This document shows, one piece after another, positions 28,591 through 49,306 of a DNA stretch of 64,000 nucleotides. Source of the stretch: an uncultured Alphaproteobacteria bacterium (GTDB lineage Bacteria; Pseudomonadota; Alphaproteobacteria; Rhodobacterales; Rhodobacteraceae); contig CAWKBV010000001.1 in NCBI GenBank assembly GCA_963847935.1, positions 602,448 through 666,447 on the forward strand, written 5' to 3'. The translations under genes were made by a program, and so were the position numbers. Position 1 is the stretch's first letter. Each line of letters starts with the position of its first letter. The notes beneath the pieces were generated by a model. It worked only from the letters and a program-made list of their open reading frames with translations. It did no database searches and was not told the DNA's origin.

Positions 28591-29684
28591 GCGGTCTTTC
28601 TTTCGGTCAGGTTGAGGACCATCTCGACAAGGCGGTCCGTCGCGTCGGGCGTCCCGTAGCCAAGCGCGGATTGCGCCATGCGCGTCGCGGCTTTGGGGTT
28701 CTCAAGGATTGCGGCGACATGCCCCGTGAGCGTAGCGGCGTCAAGCCGGGATTCCGGGATGAGGACGGCTGCCTCGGCGTCAACGAGGCCTCGGGCATTT
28801 GCCGTCTGGTGATCGTTCGCCGCGGCGGCGTAGGGGATAAGGATCGCAGGCCGCCCGACGATGGAGATATCGGCGACGGAAGATGCGCCGGAGCGCGAGA
28901 TCACCAGTTGCGCCTCGCTCAGGCGGCGGGGAATATCGGTGAAGAAGGGTGCAACCTCGGCCCGGATGCCGGCTTTCGCGTAGGCCGCAACGACGCGGGC
29001 CTGATCCTCGGCGCGCGCCTGATGGGCGACTTGGACATTGGCGCGCAGGGCCTCGGGCAGCGCCGCCAGCGCCTCGGGCACCATGTCCGAAAGGATGCGC
29101 GCGCCCTGCGAGCCGCCGATGACGAGGACGTTCATCGGGTAATCGCCGGGCGGGATGTAGGGTGCGCCGAAGCGTTCGAGGATGGCGGCGCGGACAGGAT
29201 TGCCGGTGAAAGTACCCTTCGCCCCCTGCGGCAGGTCGGTCGGCCAGGTGCCACAGGCGATGGCGTCGACGCGCTTGGCGAAAAGGCTGTTGACCGTCCC
29301 GAGGACGCCGTTCTGTTCATGGATCATGCGCGGGATGCGCAGCAACGTCGCGGCCGACAGCGCGGGGATCGTCGGATACCCGCCGAAACCGACCACGGCG
29401 GCGGGCCGGTCGCGCCGCATCGCGGCCACCGCACCTACGATACCGCCCGCGATGCGGAACGGGACCAGAGCTTTCGCCGCGATCCCGCCGCGCGCGAAGG
29501 TGGCTGAGGCGACCTCCTCGATCACCACCACCTTCGGAAAGGCTCCGGCATAGCGGGCGCCCCGCGCATCGGTTGACAGCTTCACCCGCCAGCCACCTGC
29601 CACCATCATCTCGGCCAGCGCCTGAGCAGGGAACATATGCCCCCCGGTCCCGCCGGCGGCGATAAGCAGCAGCGGGGCGGCCAT
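28587..29684 (-). CDS. murG: UDP-N-acetylglucosamine--N-acetylmuramyl-(pentapeptide) pyrophosphoryl-undecaprenol GlcNAc transferase
   Basis: 365 aa, '[16 protein letters not shown]', GT28 family. Confidence 0.95.
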
Positions 29685-30850
29685 TACCGCCCCCGCTTGA
29701 TGAGGTAGTCCCCGAGCTTCCCCTGCGGCCGCGACCGCGTCAGCGCCAGTAGCATCCCGAGCGCGATACCCGAAGCGATGACCGACGACCCGCCGTAGCT
29801 CACGAAGGGCAGCGTCATGCCCTTGGCGGGCAGAAGCCGGACCGCAACGCCCATGTTGATAAGCGCCTGAACACCGAACGCGCAGGCGAGACCGGCACCC
29901 GCGAGGCGGATGAAGGGATCACGCTCCCGCATCAGACGGAACAGCGAGCGGCCAGTAATCGTAGCATAGAGTGCTATGATGACGAGCACGAGGATCAGCC
30001 CGTATTCCTCGGCCGCGACGGCGATGATGAAGTCGGTATGGGCGTCCGGCAGCGACCATTTCACCGTGCCTTCGCCCACGCCCACGCCGAAGAAACCGCC
30101 GGACTGGATCGCGTCGGTCGCATAGCCAATCTGGGTGCGCGGATCCACCTCGGAGGACAGGAAGCCGTCGATCCGGCGCGCGAAATGCTCGGACGCGTCA
30201 TAAGCGGCCATGCCGCCCGCCACGACGATCCCGCCTATCACGGTCAGAAGCGTGATCGGCGCACCGGCGACGAAATACATGACGCCCCAGGCGAACATCA
30301 CGAGGCTCGCCTGCCCGAAATCCGGCTGGAAGGCAAGGAAGAGAACCACCGTCACCGCGATGAAGAAGGAATAGAGGCGGCCGGGCGGGCCGTTGATCTC
30401 TTGCGCCGCAGCCATGAGCCAGGCGCACATGATGACGAAACAAGGCTTGAGGAATTCCGAGGGCTGGAAGCTCGCGAATCCCAGCGAATACCAGCGCGTT
30501 GCGCCCTTGCCGAAATCGGTGCCGAAGATCGGCAGAAGCATCATCGCCACCATCGAGAGCAGGAAGCCCAGAACCCCCATTCGGCGCACCATGTCGGGCG
30601 ACATCATCGAGATCAGGACCATCGCGAAAAGCCCCACCCCGCCGAAGAACGCCTGCCGCGTAACATAGTAGAAGGGCGGCAGCCCGTTCTTCTCCGCGAG
30701 CGGCACCGACGCCGCGAGGCCGAGGAGAAGACCGATGCCGAAGAGCACCAGAACGCCGGCCAGCGACCAGCGATCAATCGTGCGCCACCAACGGGGAAGG
30801 ACCGGCTCGCCCGCACGCACGGGCATGGTGCCGAACACCATTTCAGTCAT
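29684..30850 (-). CDS. ftsW: SEDS-family peptidoglycan polymerase FtsW
   Basis: 388 aa, about 10 TM, '[17 protein letters not shown]'. Confidence 0.9.
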
Positions 30851-31296
30851 GGGACTACCGCTCTCACTGCCTCAACTCGCCCGTTTGCCGGGTCTGGGGC
30901 GGACTGTAGCGCGGATTACCGTGCGGTGCTAGGAAAACCTCGCCGCGCGGGGGCGATCGATGCGCGCCTTTCCTCCGCGACCGGCGCTCGAAAACATGGC
31001 GACCAGCGCGCTTCGCGCGCGTCGAAATGACCTTCGCAGAGCGTATTGAAAAGGGCGGCGTGCCGATAGGTCGCTGGTGGACCGCGACGTCCATGCACGG
31101 GAGGCGCGCCCAAGGGTGAAGCGCCCCTGCAAATGGGACAGAAGCTCGACTGCCGTTGCGTTGGCTGCGGCGTGAAATCGGGAAAACCGCCGCATTCTTC
31201 GTACCATTGCGCCCGATTGACATGCAGGGGCGGATTCCCGGTCAGAACGCGCAGCCTTGCCGCTTCGTTCCGTGCATTGACAATTTCGCGGTCTTT

Positions 31297-32706
31297 TCAC
31301 GCCTCTTGCGTGATGAGTGCCTGAACCCGCGCCGTGAAATCCTCGCCCCGCTTCTCGAAATCCGGATACTGGTCGAACGACGCGGCCGCCGGCGCAAGAA
31401 GGACCACCTCTCCCGCCTCGGCCTCTTCCGCCGCGCGGGCGACGGCCCGCTCCATCGTCTCGCAGATCTCGTGCGGCGTCTCGCCCAATTCCAGCGCGAA
31501 ATCGCGGGCGGAATGGCCGATGAGATAAGCCTTCACGACCGAGTGCAGATAAGGCACCAGCCCCGCGATGCCGCCATCCTTGCCCAAGCCTCCGGCGATC
31601 CAGCGGACCTTCGGGAACGCCTGAAGCGCCTTGGCCGCGCTGTCCACATTGGTGGCCTTCGAGTCGTTGACGAAACGGATGCCGCCCCTCTCGCCGACCA
31701 ACTGACTCCGGTGTGGCAGGCCCGCGAAACTGTGCAAAGCCTGTTCGATCACCTTGGGCGCAAGGCCAAGGGTCCGGACGGCCGCGTAGGCGGCGCAGGC
31801 ATTCTGATGGTTGTGGGCGCCCGGCAGCCCCTTGACCTCGCGCAGGTCGATGGAAGCCACCTGCCGCCCCTTCCGCCATTCGGCGAGAAAGCCCTTCCGT
31901 GCGAAAACCGACCAGCCCTCGCCGTCGAGCTTTCGTCCCGAGGAGATGCGGATCACCCTGTCATCCGCCGGCCCTTGCGCCATCTGGTTGGCAAGAAAAC
32001 GCCCTTCGGCCTCGTCGATGCCGATGATTGCACGGTCCGGCCCGCCCTCGACGAACAGCCGGCGCTTGGCGGCGAAGTAGCCGCCGAGTCCGCCGTGGCG
32101 GTCGAGATGGTCGGGAGAGAGATTGGTGAAGACCGCGATGTCGGGTGTCAAGGCGCGGGCGAGATCGGTCTGGTAGGAGCTGAGTTCCAGCACCACGACC
32201 TCGCCATCCGCGGCGGGGTCGAGATCGAGCACGCCGCGCCCGATATTGCCCGCCATCTGCGTCGGCCGTTCAGCCTCGCGGAGAATGTGGTGGATCAGCG
32301 CGGTCGTCGTCGATTTGCCGTTCGATCCCGTCACCGCGACGACCTTGGGCGCGCGGTCCATCTGTTCCCAGTCCTCGGTCGCCCAGGACCGGAAGAAAAG
32401 GCCGATGTCGTTGTCGACCGGAACCCCCGCGTCCATCGCGCGGGCGATCAGCTTGTTCGGCTCGGGGTAAAGATGCGGGATGCCCGGCGAGACGATCAGC
32501 GCCGCGACCCCGGCCCAAGCGTCGGCCTTCGTCAGATCGGTCAGCGCGAAACCCGCCGCCTCGGCCTTCTCGCGCGCCTCGGCGCTGTCATCCCAAAGAC
32601 AGGGCTCCGCGCCCCCCGCCAGAAGCGCGCGCGCCGCGGCGAGGCCGGACCGCCCAAGACCAAGCACCGCCACCTTCTGGCCGTGAAATCCCTGGACCGG
32701 GATCAT
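31297..32706 (-). CDS. murD: UDP-N-acetylmuramoylalanine--D-glutamate ligase
   Basis: 469 aa with '[17 protein letters not shown]' and '[10 protein letters not shown]'. Confidence 0.95.
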
Positions 32707-41945: not shown

Positions 41946-42452
41946 TCACCCTTTCGGCGGAAGGGGTGGCAGGAGGCTGCGGGGATCGAGATCTTCGGGA
42001 TACTGCTCGGAAAGCCTGCGGCTGCGTGGCGTGCCCTTCTTCTCGTAGGTCTCCGGGTTCCAGATGAGGAAATAGTCGCCGGCAGAGATGAAGAACGCTT
42101 CGTTCTTCAGCCCGATCTTGTCGCGGTATTTCTGCGGGATGGTCAAGCGGCCGTCGTCGTCGATCTGCGCCTCGAAGGACTGGCCGTACATGCGTTCTTC
42201 GTTGAGCAGGCGGCCGGGAGAGCCGCGCTGCATCAGGGAAATCTGTTCGTCGATCTCGTTGACGGCGTCCATCGAATGGACTTCGAGCCAGTTCTGGCTC
42301 TCGGGTCCGTAGACGATGACGATGTTGGGGCGAAGGCCGTCTTTCCAGTCGGGATCGGAAGCTTCGATGACGCGGCGGAACGGGGCAGGAATGGATACGC
42401 GGCCTTTCGCGTCCACCTTGAAGGTATCTGAGCCTCTGAACCTGCGTGCCAA
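41946..42452 (-). CDS. mraZ: division/cell wall cluster transcriptional regulator MraZ
   Basis: 168 aa with duplicated SpoVT/AbrB-like motifs 'VDAKGRVSIPAPFR' and 'IDDDGRLTIPQKYR'. Confidence 0.95.
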   Translation of the reverse strand: MARRFRGSDTFKVDAKGRVSIPAPFRRVIEASDPDWKDGLRPNIVIVYGPESQNWLEVHSMDAVNEIDEQISLMQRGSPGRLLNEERMYGQSFEAQIDDDGRLTIPQKYRDKIGLKNEAFFISAGDYFLIWNPETYEKKGTPRSRRLSEQYPEDLDPRSLLPPLPPKG

Positions 42453-42526
42453 CGGCCCGCGCTCCCGTCACTGTCCTCCCCCCAAACACACCGAATTTTT
42501 CGGTAACCGGAGCCGTGAAACGACAA

Positions 42527-42562
42527 CGGCGGATCGGGCTGCTGCCACTGCCCGATCCGCCG
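42527..42562 (-). promoter_or_regulatory. perfect 13-bp GC-rich hairpin in the mraZ 5' leader
   Basis: CGGCGGATCGGGC-(10 nt)-GCCCGATCCGCCG, 75-110 nt upstream of the mraZ ATG. On the mraZ strand it is followed by TTGTCGTTTC. Confidence 0.5.
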
Positions 42563-42729
42563 CCCTCGTCCCATCTCTGGGTCTGTCCGGCTGCGCATGC
42601 CACCTGGGGGGATGTCTGCTCGCTTGCGCGCCGGATCTCTCTGGTTCGATGAAAGCGGGTGCCTGTATGAAACCTGACTTTGCCTTTGGGTCTTGATGCC
42701 CGTCTGAGCCCGTCCTCATCTGTACGAAC

Positions 42730-42755
42730 AGGGATGGCATGGGATTTTATGGGAA
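42730..42755 (+). promoter_or_regulatory. three (A/T)GGGA boxes at exact 10-bp spacing (MraZ-box-like)
   Basis: aGGGAtggcaTGGGAttttaTGGGAagc. GGGA starts at 42731, 42741 and 42751, about 280-300 nt upstream of mraZ on the strand opposite mraZ. Confidence 0.5.
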
Positions 42756-42909
42756 GCAATAAAAATCTTTGCGCGATCTCCACAACATGCTGCCGTTCAA
42801 GGCCGTTGAAAACAGTATGTAGTGGTGACTTCCACTCCAAATTTGGCTCTTATAGCGTTCACTTAATCTATAACCACTAAATATAGAGTCGGATGAAGGT
42901 TAAGCTTCA

Positions 42910-43102: not shown

Positions 43103-44176
43103 TCAGGCCAACCCGCCCGCGACAAGCCGCTCGGCGAGACGGGCATAGGCCCCGGCCATCGGCCCATCACCAAGGGCAATCGGCGTCCCCGCATCGCCCG
43201 CCAGGCGGATTTCGATGCTGAGGGGCACCTCGCCCAGAAAGGGCACGCCGATCCGGTGCGCTTCGGCCGCGACGCCGCCGTGGCCGAAAAGATGCGCCTC
43301 ATGCCCGCAATTGGGACAGATGTAGGTGGACATGTTCTCCACCAACCCGAGGATCGGCGTCTTGAGCTTGCCGAACATGTCGATCGCGCGCCGCGCGTCG
43401 AGAAGCGCCACGTCCTGCGGCGTCGATACGACGATGGCGCCCGTCAGATGCGTGCGCTGGCAAAGGGTCAACTGCACATCGCCCGTCCCCGGCGGCAGAT
43501 CGACGATCAGGATGTCCAACTCGCCCCAGATCACCTGCCCCAACATCTGCTGGAGCGCGCCCATGAGCATCGGCCCGCGCCAGACGACGGCTTCGTTCTC
43601 TTTCAGCATGAGGCCGATCGACATCATCGTGACGCCATGCGCCTGAAGCGGGATGATCGTCTTTCCATCCGGCGAGGCGGGGCGTTTCGAGACCCCCATC
43701 ATCCTCGGCTGTGAGGGACCGTATATATCAGCATCGAGCAGACCCACGCGCCGCCCCTGCCTTGCCAGCGCCACGGCGAGGTTGGACGACAGCGTCGATT
43801 TCCCCACCCCGCCCTTGCCCGAGGCGATGGCGATGATGCGGTCGACACCGCTTACCCGTTGCGGCCCGGCCTGCGGCGTCGGATGGCCGCCGATCTTGAA
43901 GCTCGGCGGCGCGGCCGGTTTCGGGGCAGGTCCATGCGCGGTCAGCACGATGGACACCGATACTACCCCCGGAATAGCGCGAACCGCCGCCTCGGCGGCC
44001 TCATGCAAAGGCCCCATCGCTTGCGCCGCTTGCGGGTCGGGCGCCTCGATCACGAAGCGAACGGCACCGGAATCGACTGTCAGCGCGCGGATCAGATCGG
44101 CCGAAACGAGGTCTTTTCCGCCGGGAAGAGAGATTTGCCGCAAGGCATCGAAGATCTGCTCGGGTGTCGGTTCCAT
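43103..44176 (-). CDS. apbC: Fe-S cluster carrier ATPase (Mrp/ApbC/NBP35 family)
   Basis: ATG at 44176 ('MEPTPEQI'; an alternative TTG lies at 44194). N-terminal DUF59-like region, '[11 protein letters not shown]' P-loop, 'CPNCGH'. Confidence 0.9.
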
Positions 44177-44422
44177 GGTGTCGCCTTTCTCCAACCGCCC
44201 AAAGATTAGGCGGGCTGTCCAAGTTCAGAATGTCCCACCGGGCATATGCAACAGATTTATGCAAGCTGCCGTAACGGAACGCAAATTTTTGCCCTTCGGC
44301 CATGCAGATGCTGCATGGCAGCATTGTTTTCGCAGGGTATTGTGCAGCTGCAGCATTAGGCTCATGTTAGCCCCAACGGCGATAGAAAAATCGCAGACAG
44401 AAACAGACCAAGAGGCATCGAC

Positions 44423-44638
44423 ATGGCTTTTGCAAACGTAACACGCGGCGGCGAATGGGGACTGATCAACCAGTTCAACGCCTCCGTCGCAAAACTCAAC
44501 GACCAACGCCGCCGCTACAGGGTTTACCGCCAGACGATCGGTGAACTCAAGGCGCTGAACGATCGTGATCTCGCCGATCTGGGGATCGCCCGTTCGATGA
44601 TCGAGTCCATCGCGATCGAAGCTGCCTACGGCAAATAA
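44423..44638 (+). CDS. DUF1127 domain-containing small protein (CcaF1-like)
   Basis: 71 aa with hallmark 'LKALNDRDLADLGIARSMIESIA'. The CCUCCUCCC hairpin array follows immediately. Confidence 0.85.
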   Translation: MAFANVTRGGEWGLINQFNASVAKLNDQRRRYRVYRQTIGELKALNDRDLADLGIARSMIESIAIEAAYGK

Positions 44639-44645
44639 GAGTTTA

Positions 44646-44716
44646 CCCGGGGCTCCTCCTCCTCCCTGAGCCCCGGACCCAAGCGGCAACGCCACCTCCT
44701 CCCGGCAGTTGCCGCT
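44646..44716 (+). ncRNA. CcsR-like sRNA unit 1 (two hairpins, CCUCCUCCC in each loop)
   Basis: Hairpins at 44647-44676 (CCGGGGCT/AGCCCCGG) and 44683-44715 (GCGGCAAC/GTTGCCGC). The motif is at 44658 and 44695. Unit boundaries are approximate. Confidence 0.7.
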
Positions 44717-44747
44717 GACGACAGGGTCCTCAGGACCCAGAAGAACA

Positions 44748-44822
44748 CGGAAACCTCCCTCCTCCTCCCTGGAGGTTCCGTGAAGAAGAGCGGCGGTCCC
44801 CTCCTCCTCCCTGGGACCGCCG
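44748..44822 (+). ncRNA. CcsR-like sRNA unit 2 (two hairpins, CCUCCUCCC in each loop)
   Basis: Hairpins at 44748-44780 and 44792-44821 (GGCGGTCCC/GGGACCGCC). The motif is at 44761 and 44803. Confidence 0.7.
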
Positions 44823-44887
44823 TATCTTCCCTCCCCCGGCGATGCGCCGGACGACATTCGGGCCTGAACGGCCCAACGGAATACGAA

Positions 44888-44957
44888 CCGCCCTCTCCTC
44901 CTCCCTGGGCGGAACGTAGTGAAGACGGTGGCAGCTCCTCCTCCTCCCTGAGCTGCC
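44888..44957 (+). ncRNA. CcsR-like sRNA unit 3 (two hairpins, CCUCCUCCC in each loop)
   Basis: Hairpins at 44888-44912 (CCGCCC/GGGCGG) and 44930-44957 (GGCAGCT/AGCTGCC). The motif is at 44897 and 44940. Confidence 0.7.
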
Positions 44958-44983
44958 ACCGCACCTTCACACACATACGTTGC

Positions 44984-45054
44984 GCCCCCTCCTCCTCCCT
45001 GGGGCGAGCGTTCAGACGGCGGTCCCTCCTCCTCCCTGGGGCCGCCGTTTTTTT
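44984..45054 (+). ncRNA. CcsR-like sRNA unit 4 (two hairpins; the second doubles as an intrinsic terminator)
   Basis: Hairpins at 44984-45006 (CGCCCC/GGGGCG) and 45018-45046 (GGCGGTCCC/GGGGCCGCC), followed by TTTTTTT (45048-45054). The motif is at 44991 and 45028. Confidence 0.75.
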
Positions 45055-45117
45055 ACTTTCATGGACAGAGGACGCGGATTATCGTCCCGGCCTGGCCATA
45101 TCTCCGGGAGGCGCGCG

Positions 45118-45705
45118 ATGGCTGAGGCTGATCGCAGGGTCGATGTCTTTTTCACCAAGCAGAAGAACTGGCAGGGCGAGTTGGTTGCCCTGCGCGCAAT
45201 CCTTCTGGACAGCGGCCTGACTGAGGAGTTCAAGTGGCGCTCGCCCGTCTACACCTTCGATGGCGGCAACGTCGCCATCGTCTGGGGCTTCAAGGACCAT
45301 GCCGCACTTGGCTTCTTCAAGGGCGTGCTTCTGAAAGACCCGGCCGGCATCCTCGTCGCGCAAGGTGAGAATTCGCGTTCCGCGCGCGTCGTCAAGTTCA
45401 ACAGCGTGGCGGAGATCACGGCGCTGGAAGCCACGATCAAGGACTACCTCCGCGAGGCGATCAAAGTGGAGAAGGCCGGGCTGAAGGTTGACTTGCCGAA
45501 GGACGATCTCGATTATCCATCTGAACTCGTTGACAAACTCGACACGGATGCTGAGTTCCGCACGTCGTTCGAAGCGCTGACGCCGGGGCGGCGGCGGAGT
45601 TGGGTCCTGCATGTCTCGCAAGCCAAGCAGGCCGAGACGCGGGCGTCGAGGATCGAAAAGGCCGCGCCGAAGATCTTCGAGGGCAAGGGCTTCAACGAAC
45701 GCTAG
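45118..45705 (+). CDS. YdeI/OmpD-associated (DUF1801-type) family protein
   Basis: ATG at 45118 ('MAEADRRVDVFF'). 'FKWRSPVYTFDGGNV' and C-terminal 'PGRRRSWVLHVSQAKQAETRASRIEK'. Confidence 0.75.
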   Translation: MAEADRRVDVFFTKQKNWQGELVALRAILLDSGLTEEFKWRSPVYTFDGGNVAIVWGFKDHAALGFFKGVLLKDPAGILVAQGENSRSARVVKFNSVAEITALEATIKDYLREAIKVEKAGLKVDLPKDDLDYPSELVDKLDTDAEFRTSFEALTPGRRRSWVLHVSQAKQAETRASRIEKAAPKIFEGKGFNER

Positions 45706-45711
45706 GCGGCC

Positions 45712-48068
<2,357 letters not shown>

Positions 48069-48171
48069 GCGCGCCAATCTAGACACATCGCGATCCGAAT
48101 TAAAGACAAGTTCACACTCTGTTCCGCATAGACCGCTGGACTTTCGCGCGGTGCCTGAGAAGAAAGGCGGC

Positions 48172-49306
48172 ATGGACCTGCATCAGCGCTATCCAGCGAT
48201 TTCCGACCTGAGGGCGCGCGCCCGGCGCAGGATGCCGTGGTTCGTCTGGGAATATCTCGAAAGCGCCACCGGGTCCGAGGCGACTCAGCGGCGCAATCGG
48301 GAAAAGCTCGATGAGGTGACGCTCAGCCCGTCGATTCTGCATGGCGAGTTCACGCCCGACCTCTCCGTCGAGATGTTCGGACAGACCTATCCCTTGCCCT
48401 TCGGCATCTCGCCCGTCGGCATGTCGGGCATCTTCTGGCCCGATGCGGAACGCCTTCTTGCCACCGCCGCGGCCACGGCCGACCTGCCCTATGGGCTTTC
48501 CACCGTCGCCGCGCAGACGCCGGAGGCGATCGCGCCGCATCTGGGCCAACACGGCTGGTTCCAGATGTATCCACCGCGCGATCCGGGTATCCGCACCGAC
48601 ATACTGAAACGTGCCAAGGATGCCGGGTTCTCGACGCTGATCCTGACCGTGGACGTGCCCGTGGCCAGCCGCCGGGAACGCCAGACCCGCTCCGGCCTGA
48701 CCCAACCGCCGCGCTTGACCCCACGGCTTCTGGCGCAAGTCCTGATGTGTCCCGAATGGGCGCTCGGCACGCTCCGCCATGGGATGCCACGGATGCGGCT
48801 GATGGACAGCTATGCCGATACGTCCGTAAAGACCTCCTCGACCGCGCACGTCGGCTATCTGCTCAGGACGTCGCCCGACTGGGACTATGTCAAATGGCTG
48901 CGCGACAGCTTGGGACGGGCCGTTCCTCATCAAGGGCGTGCTGCGCGCCGACGATGCCGCCCGGTTGCAGGACGAAGGCGTGGATGCGATCTGGGTCTCG
49001 AACCACGCCGGGCGCCAGTTCGACGCCGCCCCGGCCTCGATCGAGGCGCTGCCCGCGATCCGCGCGGCGACGACGCTGCCGATCATCTTCGACAGCGGCA
49101 TCGAGGGTGGGCTGGACATGCTCCGCGCCATCGCACTCGGCGCGGATTTCGTGATGATGGGCCGCGCCTGGCACTATGCTCTCGCGGCCCTCGGCGAGGC
49201 CGGACCGGCGCATCTCATCGACATGCTGAAGCTCGACCTCATCTCCAACATGGGGCAGCTTGGCGCGCGCAAGCTGACCGATGTGCGCGGCTGCCTGATC
49301 GCCTGA
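48172..49306 (+). pseudogene. FMN-dependent alpha-hydroxy acid dehydrogenase (L-lactate dehydrogenase LldD-like), frame broken near 48905-48915
   Basis: The N-terminal part ('PFGISPVG', 'DWDYVKWLRDS') is in ORF 48067-49473. It continues as 'WDGPFLIKGV...VSNHAGRQFD...DSGIEGG' in ORF 48887-49306. The break is at AGCTTGGGAC, and the span is 3n+1 nt. Confidence 0.8.

Follow-up and report, generated by a model that had tools for sequence, protein, structure and literature searches.

A probable orthologue of the Rhodobacter sphaeroides ccaF1-ccsR1-4 operon in an uncultured Paracoccaceae bacterium

The sequence, fold and comparative analyses led us to conclude that a DUF1127 gene and the eight tandem hairpins following it very probably represent an orthologue of the ccaF1-ccsR1-4 operon of Rhodobacter (Cereibacter) sphaeroides, whose transcript would be processed into four trans-acting sRNAs. 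The locus lies in the window, i.e., the whole 64-kb stretch of DNA analysed, to which all coordinates refer. The reference is R. sphaeroides 2.4.1 RSP_6037 with RSs0680a–d (Berghoff 2009, Billenkamp 2015, Gruetzner 2021 PMC8034643), for which co-transcription of ccaF1 with CcsR1–4, processing by RNase E, and binding by CcaF1 have been described (PMC8034643). The initial annotation of the window had proposed homology with R. sphaeroides CcsR1–4 and CcaF1, and this is supported by the protein, the Rfam tiling, the synteny, the promoter, and the transcript length. It had also regarded the locus as probably not new; the published cuckoo census already contains '2222' clusters beside DUF1127 genes. 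The locus is already known in kind: it is an ordinary counterpart of a described stress operon and raises no new question. It comprises the following features.

44299–44319, no strand assigned: palindrome GCCATGCAG-ATG-CTGCATGGC with the core GCCATGC-N7-GCATGGC, found as an inverted repeat in the terminator scan
44340–44367, plus strand: candidate RpoH promoter (sigma-32-type, RpoHI/RpoHII), with the -35 element TTG at 44340–44342 and the -10 element CTCATGT at 44361–44367
44410–44415, plus strand: AAGAGG, read from the sequence as the Shine-Dalgarno sequence of the DUF1127 gene, whose ATG follows 7 nt downstream
44423–44638, plus strand: probable ccaF1 orthologue, encoding an arginine-rich 71-aa DUF1127 protein (PF06568); stop codon TAA at 44636–44638
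44641–44720, plus strand: CcsR-type unit 1, hairpin 1 at 44647–44676 and hairpin 2 at 44682–44716; Rfam CcsR1 match of 41.2 bits covering model positions 1–83 of 83
44724–44738, plus strand: motif-less spacer hairpin GGGUCC-uca-GGACCC, supported by the minimum free energy (MFE) fold and conservation in orthologues
44743–44828, plus strand: CcsR-type unit 2, hairpin 3 at 44752–44777 and hairpin 4 at 44790–44823; CcsR1 match of 52.8 bits, window E-value 4.4e-10
44836–44850, plus strand: motif-less spacer hairpin CCGGCG-aug-CGCCGG in the MFE fold, preceded by the C/U-rich CUUCCCUCCCCC
44860–44874, plus strand: motif-less spacer hairpin GGGCC-ugaac-GGCCC in the MFE fold, conserved in five orthologues
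44879–44967, plus strand: CcsR-type unit 3, hairpin 5 at 44888–44912 and hairpin 6 at 44926–44961; CcsR1 match of 32.2 bits, window E-value 5e-4
44975–45054, plus strand: CcsR-type unit 4, hairpin 7 at 44983–45006 and hairpin 8 at 45014–45050; CcsR1 match of 47.2 bits, window E-value 2e-8

The array begins 3 nt past the DUF1127 stop codon on the same strand. The loop motif CCTCCTCCC starts on the plus strand at 44658, 44695, 44761, 44803, 44897, 44940, 44991, and 45028, and the spacing between successive copies is 37, 66, 42, 94, 43, 51, and 37 nt; every one of these coordinates, as recorded in the initial annotation, agrees with the sequence. The hairpins form four pairs, and CCUCCUCCC is present as an exact 9-mer in all eight loops. 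Nine copies of the motif occur in the window against 0.91 expected, eight of them inside the array, and none of 100 shuffled windows contained nine copies. The perfect stems of hairpins 1–8 measure 9, 9, 7, 11, 6, 12, 6, and 13 bp. Their summed length is 73 bp, compared with 28.7 ± 4.1 bp (maximum 48) when the 3′ flanks were shuffled, and the mean stem of 9.1 bp for the true arm pairs fell to 4.6 bp when the 3′ arm was swapped from another hairpin. The MFE of positions 44639–45060 is -213.4 kcal/mol, compared with -149.7 ± 5.6 kcal/mol for the shuffles (z = -11.4), and the MFE fold recovers all eight motif hairpins together with the three small motif-less hairpins (44724–44738, 44836–44850, and 44860–44874) that had been noticed earlier between the units. 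Hairpin 8 is also an intrinsic terminator, whose U7 tract, read from the sequence, was found at 45048–45054, where the initial annotation had placed a T7 terminator after the last hairpin. The simple terminator scan missed it because the scan accepts only loops of 3–8 nt.

The stems had been described as differing in sequence and nevertheless complementary, and their covariation greatly exceeded that of the shuffled and slid controls. In a MAFFT alignment of 20 units, which was fitted to no structure, paired cells amounted to 96.5%, compared with 83.0 ± 1.4% in the shuffles. Cells changed on both sides numbered 37, compared with 11.3 ± 2.4 in the shuffles, and this number was reached in none of 500 shuffles; the covariation score of 0.468 dropped to 0.06–0.13 when the partners were slid. 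Comparison of five collinear orthologous arrays showed compensatory changes at 13 pairs with invariant loops, and 58 distinct 5′ arms were counted among 74 motif hairpins from ten loci. The layout of a DUF1127 gene followed by an array is common to loci L001–L008 (L004, whose array is collinear with that of the window, is the locus of Defluviimonas denitrificans DSM 18921, a cultured relative), L010, L013, and L018–L020 of our comparison. Loss of the array in DUF1127-bearing relatives had been named in advance as one outcome that would count against a functional array; in fact, all seven full-length relatives and all three Cereibacter loci retain it.

Cuckoo RNAs are defined by two to four adjacent hairpins with CCUCCUCCC in each loop and variable stems (Reinkensmeier & Giegerich 2015, PMC4615179), and the region displays exactly these properties, i.e., adjacent motif-loop hairpins whose stems are variable in sequence but complementary. 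The Infernal search with Rfam models suggested in the initial annotation gave a divided answer: four covariance-model matches to CcsR1 (RF02791) were obtained, but none of them reaches the gathering score. The four matches are consecutive and full-length, they coincide with the four two-hairpin units, and their whole-window E-values are 4e-10, 2e-8, 1e-6, and 5e-4. Over the array, every Rfam family stays below its gathering score, the CcsR1 units scoring 32–53 bits against the required 65.3. In the Cereibacter azotoformans control, CcsR1 passes with 106.2 bits and the genuine CcsR2–4 fail at 51.6–54.1 bits. Since genuine Cereibacter CcsR2–4 fail as well, the sub-threshold scores reflect the narrowness of the RF02791 model and do not imply non-membership; unit 3, at 32 bits, scores below every Cereibacter control unit. 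What the RF02791 threshold delimits is the set of CcsR1 orthologues in the reference clade and not the family as a whole. In the Wenxinia array (L008), which has 15 motif hairpins, no Rfam match was found at E ≤ 1e-4. 6C RNA (RF01066) scored 19–29 bits over the window array (E = 0.17–8), below its gathering score of 47, and sX13 (RF02232) scored 18 bits, below 50; the E-values of the 6C matches of 27–29 bits and of the sX13 match are 0.17–0.8. These weak matches reflect shape alone, and the region is a member of neither family. 6C from Actinobacteria and sX13 from Xanthomonas share with the array the principle of C-rich loops pairing with G-rich or Shine-Dalgarno-like sequences, but neither family is related to it; both come from other phyla or classes and carry different loop motifs, 6C consisting of two hairpins with CCCC loops.

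The protein encoded upstream of the array matches PF06568 over residues 29–61 of 71 (E = 6e-11, 42.3 bits against a cutoff of 23.3). It aligns without gaps over 70 of 71 residues with its R. sphaeroides counterpart (P0176 in our set; accessions including ABA78248.1), with 53% identity and 70% positives (E = 8e-24), and both proteins consist of 71 residues, as does CcaF1. The profile gave 5213 matches; of the 120 best listed, all that carry a name belong to Paracoccaceae. The AF2 model of the protein is all-helical with three helices (pLDDT 82). Binding of RNA by CcaF1 is described for R. sphaeroides (PMC8034643), and a resemblance to Smaug/SAM domains has been reported. A Foldseek search of the PDB with the AF2 model gave nothing at E ≤ 0.001, the best match having an E-value of 2.8 and the p63 SAM domain appearing only at E = 3.6 with a probability of 0.11, and a PDB sequence search with the DUF1127 protein found no solved structure of a related sequence.

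The predicted transcription unit also resembles that of the reference. The candidate RpoH promoter would place the transcription start at A44376, which gives a predicted 5′ UTR of 47 nt. The G of TTG and the A of CAT are 22 nt apart, which matches the published spacing of -34 to -12 (Dufour 2012). Each of eight loci (the window, L001–L004, and L018–L020) has a single TTG-N19-YYATNT pattern upstream of the gene, and the promoter block is nearly invariant across genera with identical spacing. According to work cited in PMC8034643, the R. sphaeroides ccaF1-ccsR locus is RpoHI/HII-dependent. No sigma-70-like site was found upstream of the ccaF1 orthologue or within the array, and the reading of TGGCAGCATTG as a sigma-54 site was rejected, its spacing departing from GG-N10-GC. 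The only terminator in the operon is that at the end of the array. The operon thus appears to possess a single RpoHI/RpoHII-type promoter before the ORF and a single terminator after the last unit. The predicted transcript (44376–45054) is 679 nt long and includes a 3′ UTR of approximately 416 nt, whereas a precursor of 680 nt, of which CcsR1–4 occupy approximately 400 nt, has been reported for R. sphaeroides (PMC8034643).

The gene order in the window, mrp on the minus strand, the ccaF1 orthologue and the array on the plus strand, one further gene, and uvrD on the minus strand, has the identical frame in Cereibacter: mrp/apbC is divergent upstream, uvrD is convergent downstream, and in both cases the dcw cluster with its mraZ leader follows beyond mrp. 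Between the array and uvrD lies a gene for DUF1801/OmdA in the window and for BenE in Cereibacter. No database record matched the window protein exactly; the nearest relatives are uncultured Paracoccaceae and Defluviimonas/Albidovulum. The source organism is a member of Paracoccaceae (previously called Rhodobacteraceae), as is the reference organism. The window also carries an Rfam match to Atu_At1, a family named for Rhizobiales; a Rhizobiales origin was rejected, since Paracoccaceae is indicated by the synteny and by every protein relative.

Taken feature by feature, the window locus shares with the R. sphaeroides operon four two-hairpin units in the 3′ UTR that open with GUUU right past the stop codon, and with the R. 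sphaeroides and Cereibacter arrays the motif in all loops, the motif-less hairpins between units, the RpoH-type promoter spacing, and the mrp/uvrD flanks. There are also some differences. The 5′ UTR is shorter than the 67 nt of Cereibacter; the eighth cuckoo hairpin itself serves as terminator, whereas Cereibacter has a separate motif-less terminator hairpin after CcsR4; and the stem sequences are almost wholly different. Clusters of the '2222' type beside DUF1127 genes (CIN1) are typical of Rhodobacteraceae, and the census records them in R. capsulatus and R. sphaeroides ATCC 17025 (PMC4615179). The window shows no structural difference from this CIN1 neighbourhood; its genome is that of an uncultured organism and could not have been covered by the 2015 census. 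[quoted passage not shown]

The division into four two-hairpin units should be weighed against other ways of cutting the same array. It is unlikely that the eight hairpins are cut into three- or four-hairpin sRNAs (HP3 or HP4 of the ar14/NfeR1 type) or into a mixture, all within the same RNA family. NfeR1 (ar14, SmrC14) of Sinorhizobium meliloti shares with the array the loop motif, the modular hairpins, and the superfamily, and the best ar14 (RF02344) matches, 53.8 bits at 44877–45016, 51.2 bits at 44921–45053, and 43.3 bits at 44740–44859, are about level with those of CcsR1 but below the gathering score of 58.8. In addition, only 7 nt separate units 3 and 4, and mixed clusters of the types '22223' and '24' occur in Rhodobacteraceae (PMC4615179). 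However, the ar14 matches overlap one another as well as the CcsR1 units, they do not cover the array as consecutive units, and some hairpins fall to none of them. The stems alternate between short and long (9/9, 7/11, 6/12, and 6/13 bp), an alternation also seen in the two-hairpin CcsR consensus, the units of the window align one-to-one with Cereibacter CcsR1–4, and the motif-less hairpins sit exactly between the proposed pairs. The ar14 RNAs, which consist of three hairpins and come from Rhizobiales, belong to the same superfamily but are not the best description of the two-hairpin units of the array.

In a second group of alternatives, discrete trans-acting sRNAs are not the main product of the array. 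We consider it very unlikely that its chief role is in cis or that of a decoy, either as a stabilizer or terminator of the ccaF1 mRNA or as an unprocessed sponge for CcaF1, Hfq, or G-rich RNAs. The single terminator and the absence of internal promoters would suit such a role, as would the lack of a convincing target in the window and the finding that R. sphaeroides CcaF1 binds the CcsR1–4 precursor and that its overexpression lowers the CcsR levels (PMC8034643). On the other hand, a stabilizer or a terminator does not need a 9-nt loop that is invariant eight times and conserved across genera, and discrete, RNase E-dependent CcsR1–4 species acting on flhR mRNA are known in R. sphaeroides, according to reports cited in PMC8034643. 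Least probable, and extremely unlikely, is that the region is protein-coding or consists of REP-like extragenic palindromes without specific function. Overlapping ORFs are indeed present (249 and 116 aa on the minus strand, 146 and 241 aa on the plus strand), and on the minus strand the motif reads GGGAGGAGG, a perfect Shine-Dalgarno sequence from which the 249-aa and 116-aa ORFs start 13–14 nt downstream. Nevertheless, the many 1- and 2-nt indels between orthologous arrays would break any reading frame, and the stem substitutions are compensatory while the loops are invariant. The array motif is strictly strand-specific and clusters only beside DUF1127 genes, and the copy in the rest of the window has no hairpin around it. 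On these grounds both the coding and the REP-element readings were rejected.

We therefore return to the operon of four CcsR-type sRNAs and presume, by orthology with R. sphaeroides, the expression, processing sites, unit boundaries, CcaF1 binding, and targets of the window locus. Under heat or oxidative stress, the sigma-32-type (RpoHI/RpoHII) promoter at 44340–44367 would fire near A44376 and yield an RNA of approximately 679 nt that consists of the CcaF1 message and the 3′ UTR of approximately 416 nt and ends at hairpin 8 with its U7 tract. RNase E would cleave linkers that are single-stranded and contain U, such as GUUUAC past the stop codon, and CcaF1 bound to the precursor may modulate this cleavage. 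The 5′ start of unit 1, GUUUAC, resembles the published RNase E site of CcsR1, GUUUCC; for the published sites CUCUUC and ACUUC only loose likenesses are found in the linkers (AUCUUC at 44824–44829, ACAUUC at 44855–44860, and CCUUCAC at 44963–44969). Four sRNAs of approximately 80–90 nt would be released, each with two hairpins displaying the anti-Shine-Dalgarno-like CCUCCUCCC in their loops. Together with Hfq, these loops are expected to pair with G-rich, Shine-Dalgarno-like sites of mRNAs, such as flhR in R. sphaeroides, and the pairing would reduce translation or stability and thereby shift C1 and pyruvate metabolism under stress. Only R. sphaeroides and a handful of other species are known to produce stable small cuckoo transcripts that depend on RNase E and associate with Hfq. 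A search of the 64-kb window for GGGAGGAGG-like sites before start codons found no convincing target site, and three one-mismatch sites (1637 on the plus strand, 23198 and 42483 on the minus strand) are of no evident significance and are not proposed as targets.

The value of the locus lies mainly in annotation, as it is real and functional-looking, yet invisible to standard pipelines. Since no Rfam family reaches the gathering score, a pipeline run would report nothing at the array, and a gene caller misled by GGGAGGAGG on the minus strand could report the spurious 249-aa and 116-aa ORFs instead. The fact that RF02791 misses the sister units CcsR2–4 and the Wenxinia array suggests that CcsR/cuckoo arrays are probably under-annotated across Paracoccaceae. 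The window adds one more lineage in which the protein, the promoter, the array, and the flanks are conserved, in agreement with published work that regards the ccaF1-ccsR operon as ancestral in the family.

The spacer hairpins and the palindrome are the only parts of the locus that go beyond the description in the literature consulted. The motif-less hairpins probably shield the 3′ ends of units 1–3, which have no terminator of their own. More speculatively, we suggest as a doubtful possibility that both are functional modules of their own: the spacer hairpins would serve as dedicated 3′-end protectors or as guides for RNase E and CcaF1 that set the relative yields of the four sRNAs, and the palindrome would be the operator of a further regulator that gives the RpoH-dependent promoter a second input or couples it to the divergent mrp gene. 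The palindrome at 44299–44319 precedes the -35 element by approximately 20 nt, and the window, L001–L004, and the Cereibacter loci all have the same core; it may be an operator or part of the divergent mrp promoter. As to conservation of the spacer hairpins, the stem at 44836–44850 is invariant in five orthologues and is therefore uninformative on covariation. The orthologues of the hairpin at 44724–44738 show compensatory changes of GC to AU and CG to UA at alignment columns 97/107 and 98/106. Counterparts of the motif-less spacer hairpins are also seen in the Cereibacter array.

The initial annotation placed a DUF1127 gene and eight motif-in-loop hairpins at 44423–45056, and the sequence is as claimed there. 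There are nine copies of the motif CCTCCTCCC in this 64-kb stretch, always on the plus strand; 0.91 copies are expected per whole window, and nine were reached in none of 100 dinucleotide-preserving shuffles. All eight array positions were confirmed (44658, 44695, 44761, 44803, 44897, 44940, 44991, and 45028). Every array copy lies in a hairpin loop, and the stems pair without mismatch over 9, 9, 7, 11, 6, 12, 6, and 13 bp, respectively. The summed stem length is 73 bp, as compared to 28.7 ± 4.1 bp (maximum 48) with the 3′ flanks shuffled, and the true arm partners pair over a mean of 9.1 bp, as compared to 4.6 bp when a 5′ arm is combined with the 3′ arm of another hairpin. The minimum free energy of 44639–45060 is −213.4 kcal/mol (−149.7 ± 5.6 in shuffles; z = −11.4). 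The corresponding fold holds all eight motif hairpins and the three small motif-less hairpins proposed between the units (44724–44738, 44836–44850, and 44860–44874), and the seven-T run was likewise found directly after hairpin 8 (45048–45054). Elsewhere in the 64-kb window, no relaxed form of the motif lies in a hairpin. The ninth exact copy (46990–46998, plus strand) is within the uvrD gene and not in a hairpin; the uvrD mRNA, on the minus strand, thus carries GGGAGGAGG, the perfect complement of the sRNA loops. One such extra copy in the window is no more than chance would give, and no credible sRNA target site was found within these 64 kb.

A protein search of species-representative genomes gave 17 loci, 15 of which are named Paracoccaceae, Rhodobacterales, or close relatives; the exceptions are an unclassified alphaproteobacterial MAG and a contig binned as Gemmatimonadales. 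The array is kept wherever the protein match is full-length: each of the seven such loci has one directly 3′ of the gene and on its strand, with 7–8 exact motif copies in the four closest loci (L001–L004) and 3, 3, and 11 in the others. The array-less loci gave only partial protein matches of low identity, probably to DUF1127 paralogues. Hairpin by hairpin, the four closest arrays line up collinearly with that of the window, including the three motif-less hairpins, and among these five arrays 13 predicted pairs show double-sided changes and the loop motifs are all invariant. The many 1- and 2-nt indels between the window array and the four closest arrays rule out a coding reading of the array.

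For a closer comparison, 20 two-hairpin units (four each from the window, L001, L003, L004, and Cereibacter) were aligned with plain MAFFT, not fitted to any structure. Standard pairs were found in 96.5% of cells (83.0 ± 1.4 in shuffles). Double-sided changes affected 10 of the 12 pairs and 37 cells, a cell count (11.3 ± 2.4 in shuffles) matched by none of 500 shuffles, and the covariation score was 0.468, as compared to 0.06–0.13 with the 3′ partners slid by 1–3 columns. Covariation well above the shuffled and slid controls supports the earlier view that stems differing in sequence yet complementary reflect selected RNA structure. In ten loci, 58 distinct 5′ arms are found among 74 motif hairpins, and the loops take essentially two forms, CUCCUCCUCCCU and ACCUCCUCCC. 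This is a real feature, and it is under selection.

An Rfam search, suggested with the initial annotation, was negative at gathering thresholds, with no match reported over the array region, and positive by E-value. When E-value thresholds replaced gathering scores in a further search of this region, the CcsR1 model (RF02791, "Conserved CCUCCUCCC motif stress-induced RNA 1") gave four consecutive non-overlapping matches on the four units, each covering model positions 1–83 of 83:

CcsR1 matches in the array (whole-window E values)
44641–44720, plus strand: unit 1, 41.2 bits, E = 1.2e-6
44743–44828, plus strand: unit 2, 52.8 bits, E = 4.4e-10
44879–44967, plus strand: unit 3, 32.2 bits, E = 5.3e-4
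44975–45053, plus strand: unit 4, 47.2 bits, E = 2e-8

All four are below the CcsR1 gathering score of 65.3, and overlapping array matches to the three-hairpin model ar14 (RF02344; 43–54 bits) are below its gathering score of 58.8. As a control for the CcsR1 shortfall, the same search was applied to the reference-clade locus of Cereibacter azotoformans, whose DUF1127 protein shares a 90%-identity cluster with the R. sphaeroides protein. CcsR1 scored 106.2 bits there, and the genuine CcsR2, CcsR3, and CcsR4 scored 52.6, 54.1, and 51.6 bits, close to the best units of the window. The RF02791 threshold is therefore tuned to the reference-clade CcsR1, and failing it says little about membership. 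This agrees with the argument of Reinkensmeier and Giegerich (PMC4615179) that covariance models perform poorly on the cuckoo family of motif-in-loop hairpin sRNAs, and with the array of Wenxinia saemankumensis (L008), for which Rfam gave no match whatever at E ≤ 1e-4. Much larger arrays follow the DUF1127 gene in L008 (2666–3463; 15 motif hairpins, each with a motif copy) and in Limimaricola sp. (L007; 2743–3194; 11 motif hairpins). Judging from spacing and stem length, the former appears to consist of five three-hairpin units and the latter of roughly 3+4+4 hairpins; the 2015 census recorded three-hairpin cuckoo RNAs in Rhodobacteraceae only as single copies in a few members (PMC4615179).

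The practical value of these results lies in annotation, as the array is missed by Rfam thresholds and its opposite-strand motifs are read as perfect Shine-Dalgarno sequences before spurious ORFs. Two minus-strand ORFs of 249 aa (44225–44974) and 116 aa (44626–44976) lie over the DUF1127 gene and array, and the loop-motif complement 13–14 nt before their starts resembles an ideal ribosome-binding site. Both were rejected as genes on account of frame-breaking indels among orthologues.

The ORF at 44423–44638 encodes a 71-aa protein matching Pfam DUF1127 (PF06568; 42.3 bits, E = 6e-11). A profile search gave 5213 relatives; of the best 120 listed, those that carry a name are Paracoccaceae. The R. 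sphaeroides protein P0176 (accessions include ABA78248.1), which falls in the Cereibacter cluster, has 71 aa, matching the length reported for CcaF1 (RSP_6037), and aligns with the window protein without gaps (53% identity, 70% positives, E = 8e-24). In the AlphaFold2 model of the window protein, residues 20–70 are confident (mean pLDDT 82) and form three helices. A resemblance to Smaug/SAM has been published for CcaF1; Foldseek of the model against the PDB gave nothing significant (best E = 2.8; a SAM domain at E = 3.6), and a PDB sequence search found no solved structure among the relatives. The Cereibacter locus reads rsmH-mraZ-(long leader)-mrp (minus strand), followed by ccaF1, the array, and benE, with uvrD convergent beyond benE. 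In the window, mrp (43103–44194, minus strand), with the same mraZ leader beyond it, is followed by ccaF1, the array, a DUF1801/OmdA gene (45118–45705, plus strand), and a convergent uvrD. The protein match and the common gene order argue for orthology, not just similarity; judged from sequence, the window locus is the orthologue of the reference ccaF1-CcsR locus.

The intergenic region 5′ of ccaF1 is conserved far above neutral and can be aligned with Cereibacter despite the proteins being only 53% identical. RpoHI/RpoHII promoters have an invariant TTG at −36 to −34 and critical A, T, and T at −12, −11, and −9 (Dufour et al.), positions implying 22 nt between the G of TTG and the critical A. 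The window has TTG at 44340–44342 and CTCATGT at 44361–44367, with exactly this spacing. TTG-N19-YYATNT occurs once 5′ of the gene in the window, in L001–L004, and in the three Cereibacter loci, and the predicted +1 is an A each time. In the window, +1 would be A44376, giving a 47-nt leader, a 679-nt transcript through the U-tract, and a 416-nt array; the R. sphaeroides precursor is 680 nt, with a CcsR1–4 portion of about 400 nt (PMC8034643). No sigma-70-like promoter was found anywhere in 44150–45200 and no U-tract follows units 1–3, which favours a single transcript and subsequent processing. Upstream of the −35 element, the block TGCAAGCTGCCGTAACGGAACGCAAA (44262–44287) is kept in the window's own clade only, and the palindrome GCCATGCAGATGCTGCATGGC followed by AGCATTG (44299–44326) is conserved in Cereibacter too. 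No known motif was recognised within the conserved blocks (44262–44327), which may act as operators of ccaF1 or of the divergent mrp.

In R. sphaeroides, the operon is transcribed under stress from an RpoHI/RpoHII promoter, maturation is modulated by CcaF1, which binds both CcsR1 and the precursor, and CcsR levels fall without Hfq (PMC8034643). By orthology, stress transcription of this kind and CcaF1-modulated maturation would also operate in the window. GUUUAC (44641–44646), directly after the stop codon, occupies the position of the R. sphaeroides CcsR1 RNase E site, and single-stranded U-containing linkers are found at 44824–44829 (AUCUUC), 44855–44860 (ACAUUC), and 44963–44969 (CCUUCAC); these are plausible candidate processing sites. 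Motif-less hairpins separate the units of the Cereibacter array as well and are thus a shared feature; they may shield the 3′ ends of units having no terminator of their own. We found no description of these hairpins in the papers on ccaF1-CcsR and cuckoo RNAs that we consulted.

The CcsR1 matches, P0176 identity, synteny, and promoter spacing thus support the proposed homology to the R. sphaeroides CcsR1-4/CcaF1 cluster. The window differs from the reference locus in the gene between array and uvrD (DUF1801/OmdA versus benE), in the leader (47 versus 67 nt), and in the terminator, which is the eighth cuckoo hairpin itself rather than a separate motif-less hairpin. These differences are minor. 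Being adjacent to the DUF1127 orthologous group, the locus belongs by definition to the CIN1 neighbourhood of cuckoo RNAs. Two-hairpin clusters are the predominant form in Rhodobacteraceae, and "2222" clusters are recorded for R. capsulatus and R. sphaeroides ATCC 17025 (2015 census, PMC4615179); multiple CcsRs in the 3′ UTR of a DUF1127 gene also predominate in this family (Gruetzner et al., PMC8034643). The initial judgement of a probable homolog that is not new was borne out: the locus is an orthologue of a system already described in the same bacterial family, and "2222" clusters were already in the 2015 census.

Downstream of the array, the uvrD-like helicase (45712–48173, minus strand) is split over three reading frames:

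46776–48173, minus strand: uvrD fragment, UvrD N-terminal helicase domain
46334–47257, minus strand: uvrD fragment, first half of UvrD_C
45712–46116, minus strand: uvrD fragment, PcrA/UvrD tudor domain

In Cereibacter, the orthologue is one protein of ~785 aa, and the split reflects either a pseudogene or assembly indel errors. In the latter case, single-base errors are possible elsewhere in the window, including the C-runs of the array.

Two other non-coding elements lie in or near the dcw cluster. A block of about 240 nt (42517–42759, minus strand) between mrp and mraZ (41946–42452, minus strand) is almost invariant among the window, Defluviimonas (L004), and Cereibacter (L019), with a fold z of −3.6, and matches no Rfam family. 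A strong terminator-like hairpin (GGCGGAUCGGGC...GCCCGAUCCGCC) followed by U-rich sequence closes the block about 65 nt before mraZ, and the block fits the R. sphaeroides UpsM sRNA and extended dcw 5′ leader in position and description (Weber 2016, PMC5089854). A match to Atu_At1 (RF02496, "Rhizobiales sRNA"; 88.3 bits, above the gathering score of 60) lies at 31126–31232 (minus strand), in the 450-nt gap between murD (31297–32706, minus strand) and ftsW (29684–30850, minus strand) of the dcw cluster. Since the host genome belongs to Paracoccaceae, the Rfam family reaches beyond Rhizobiales, and a location within the dcw operon points to a cis element rather than an independent sRNA.
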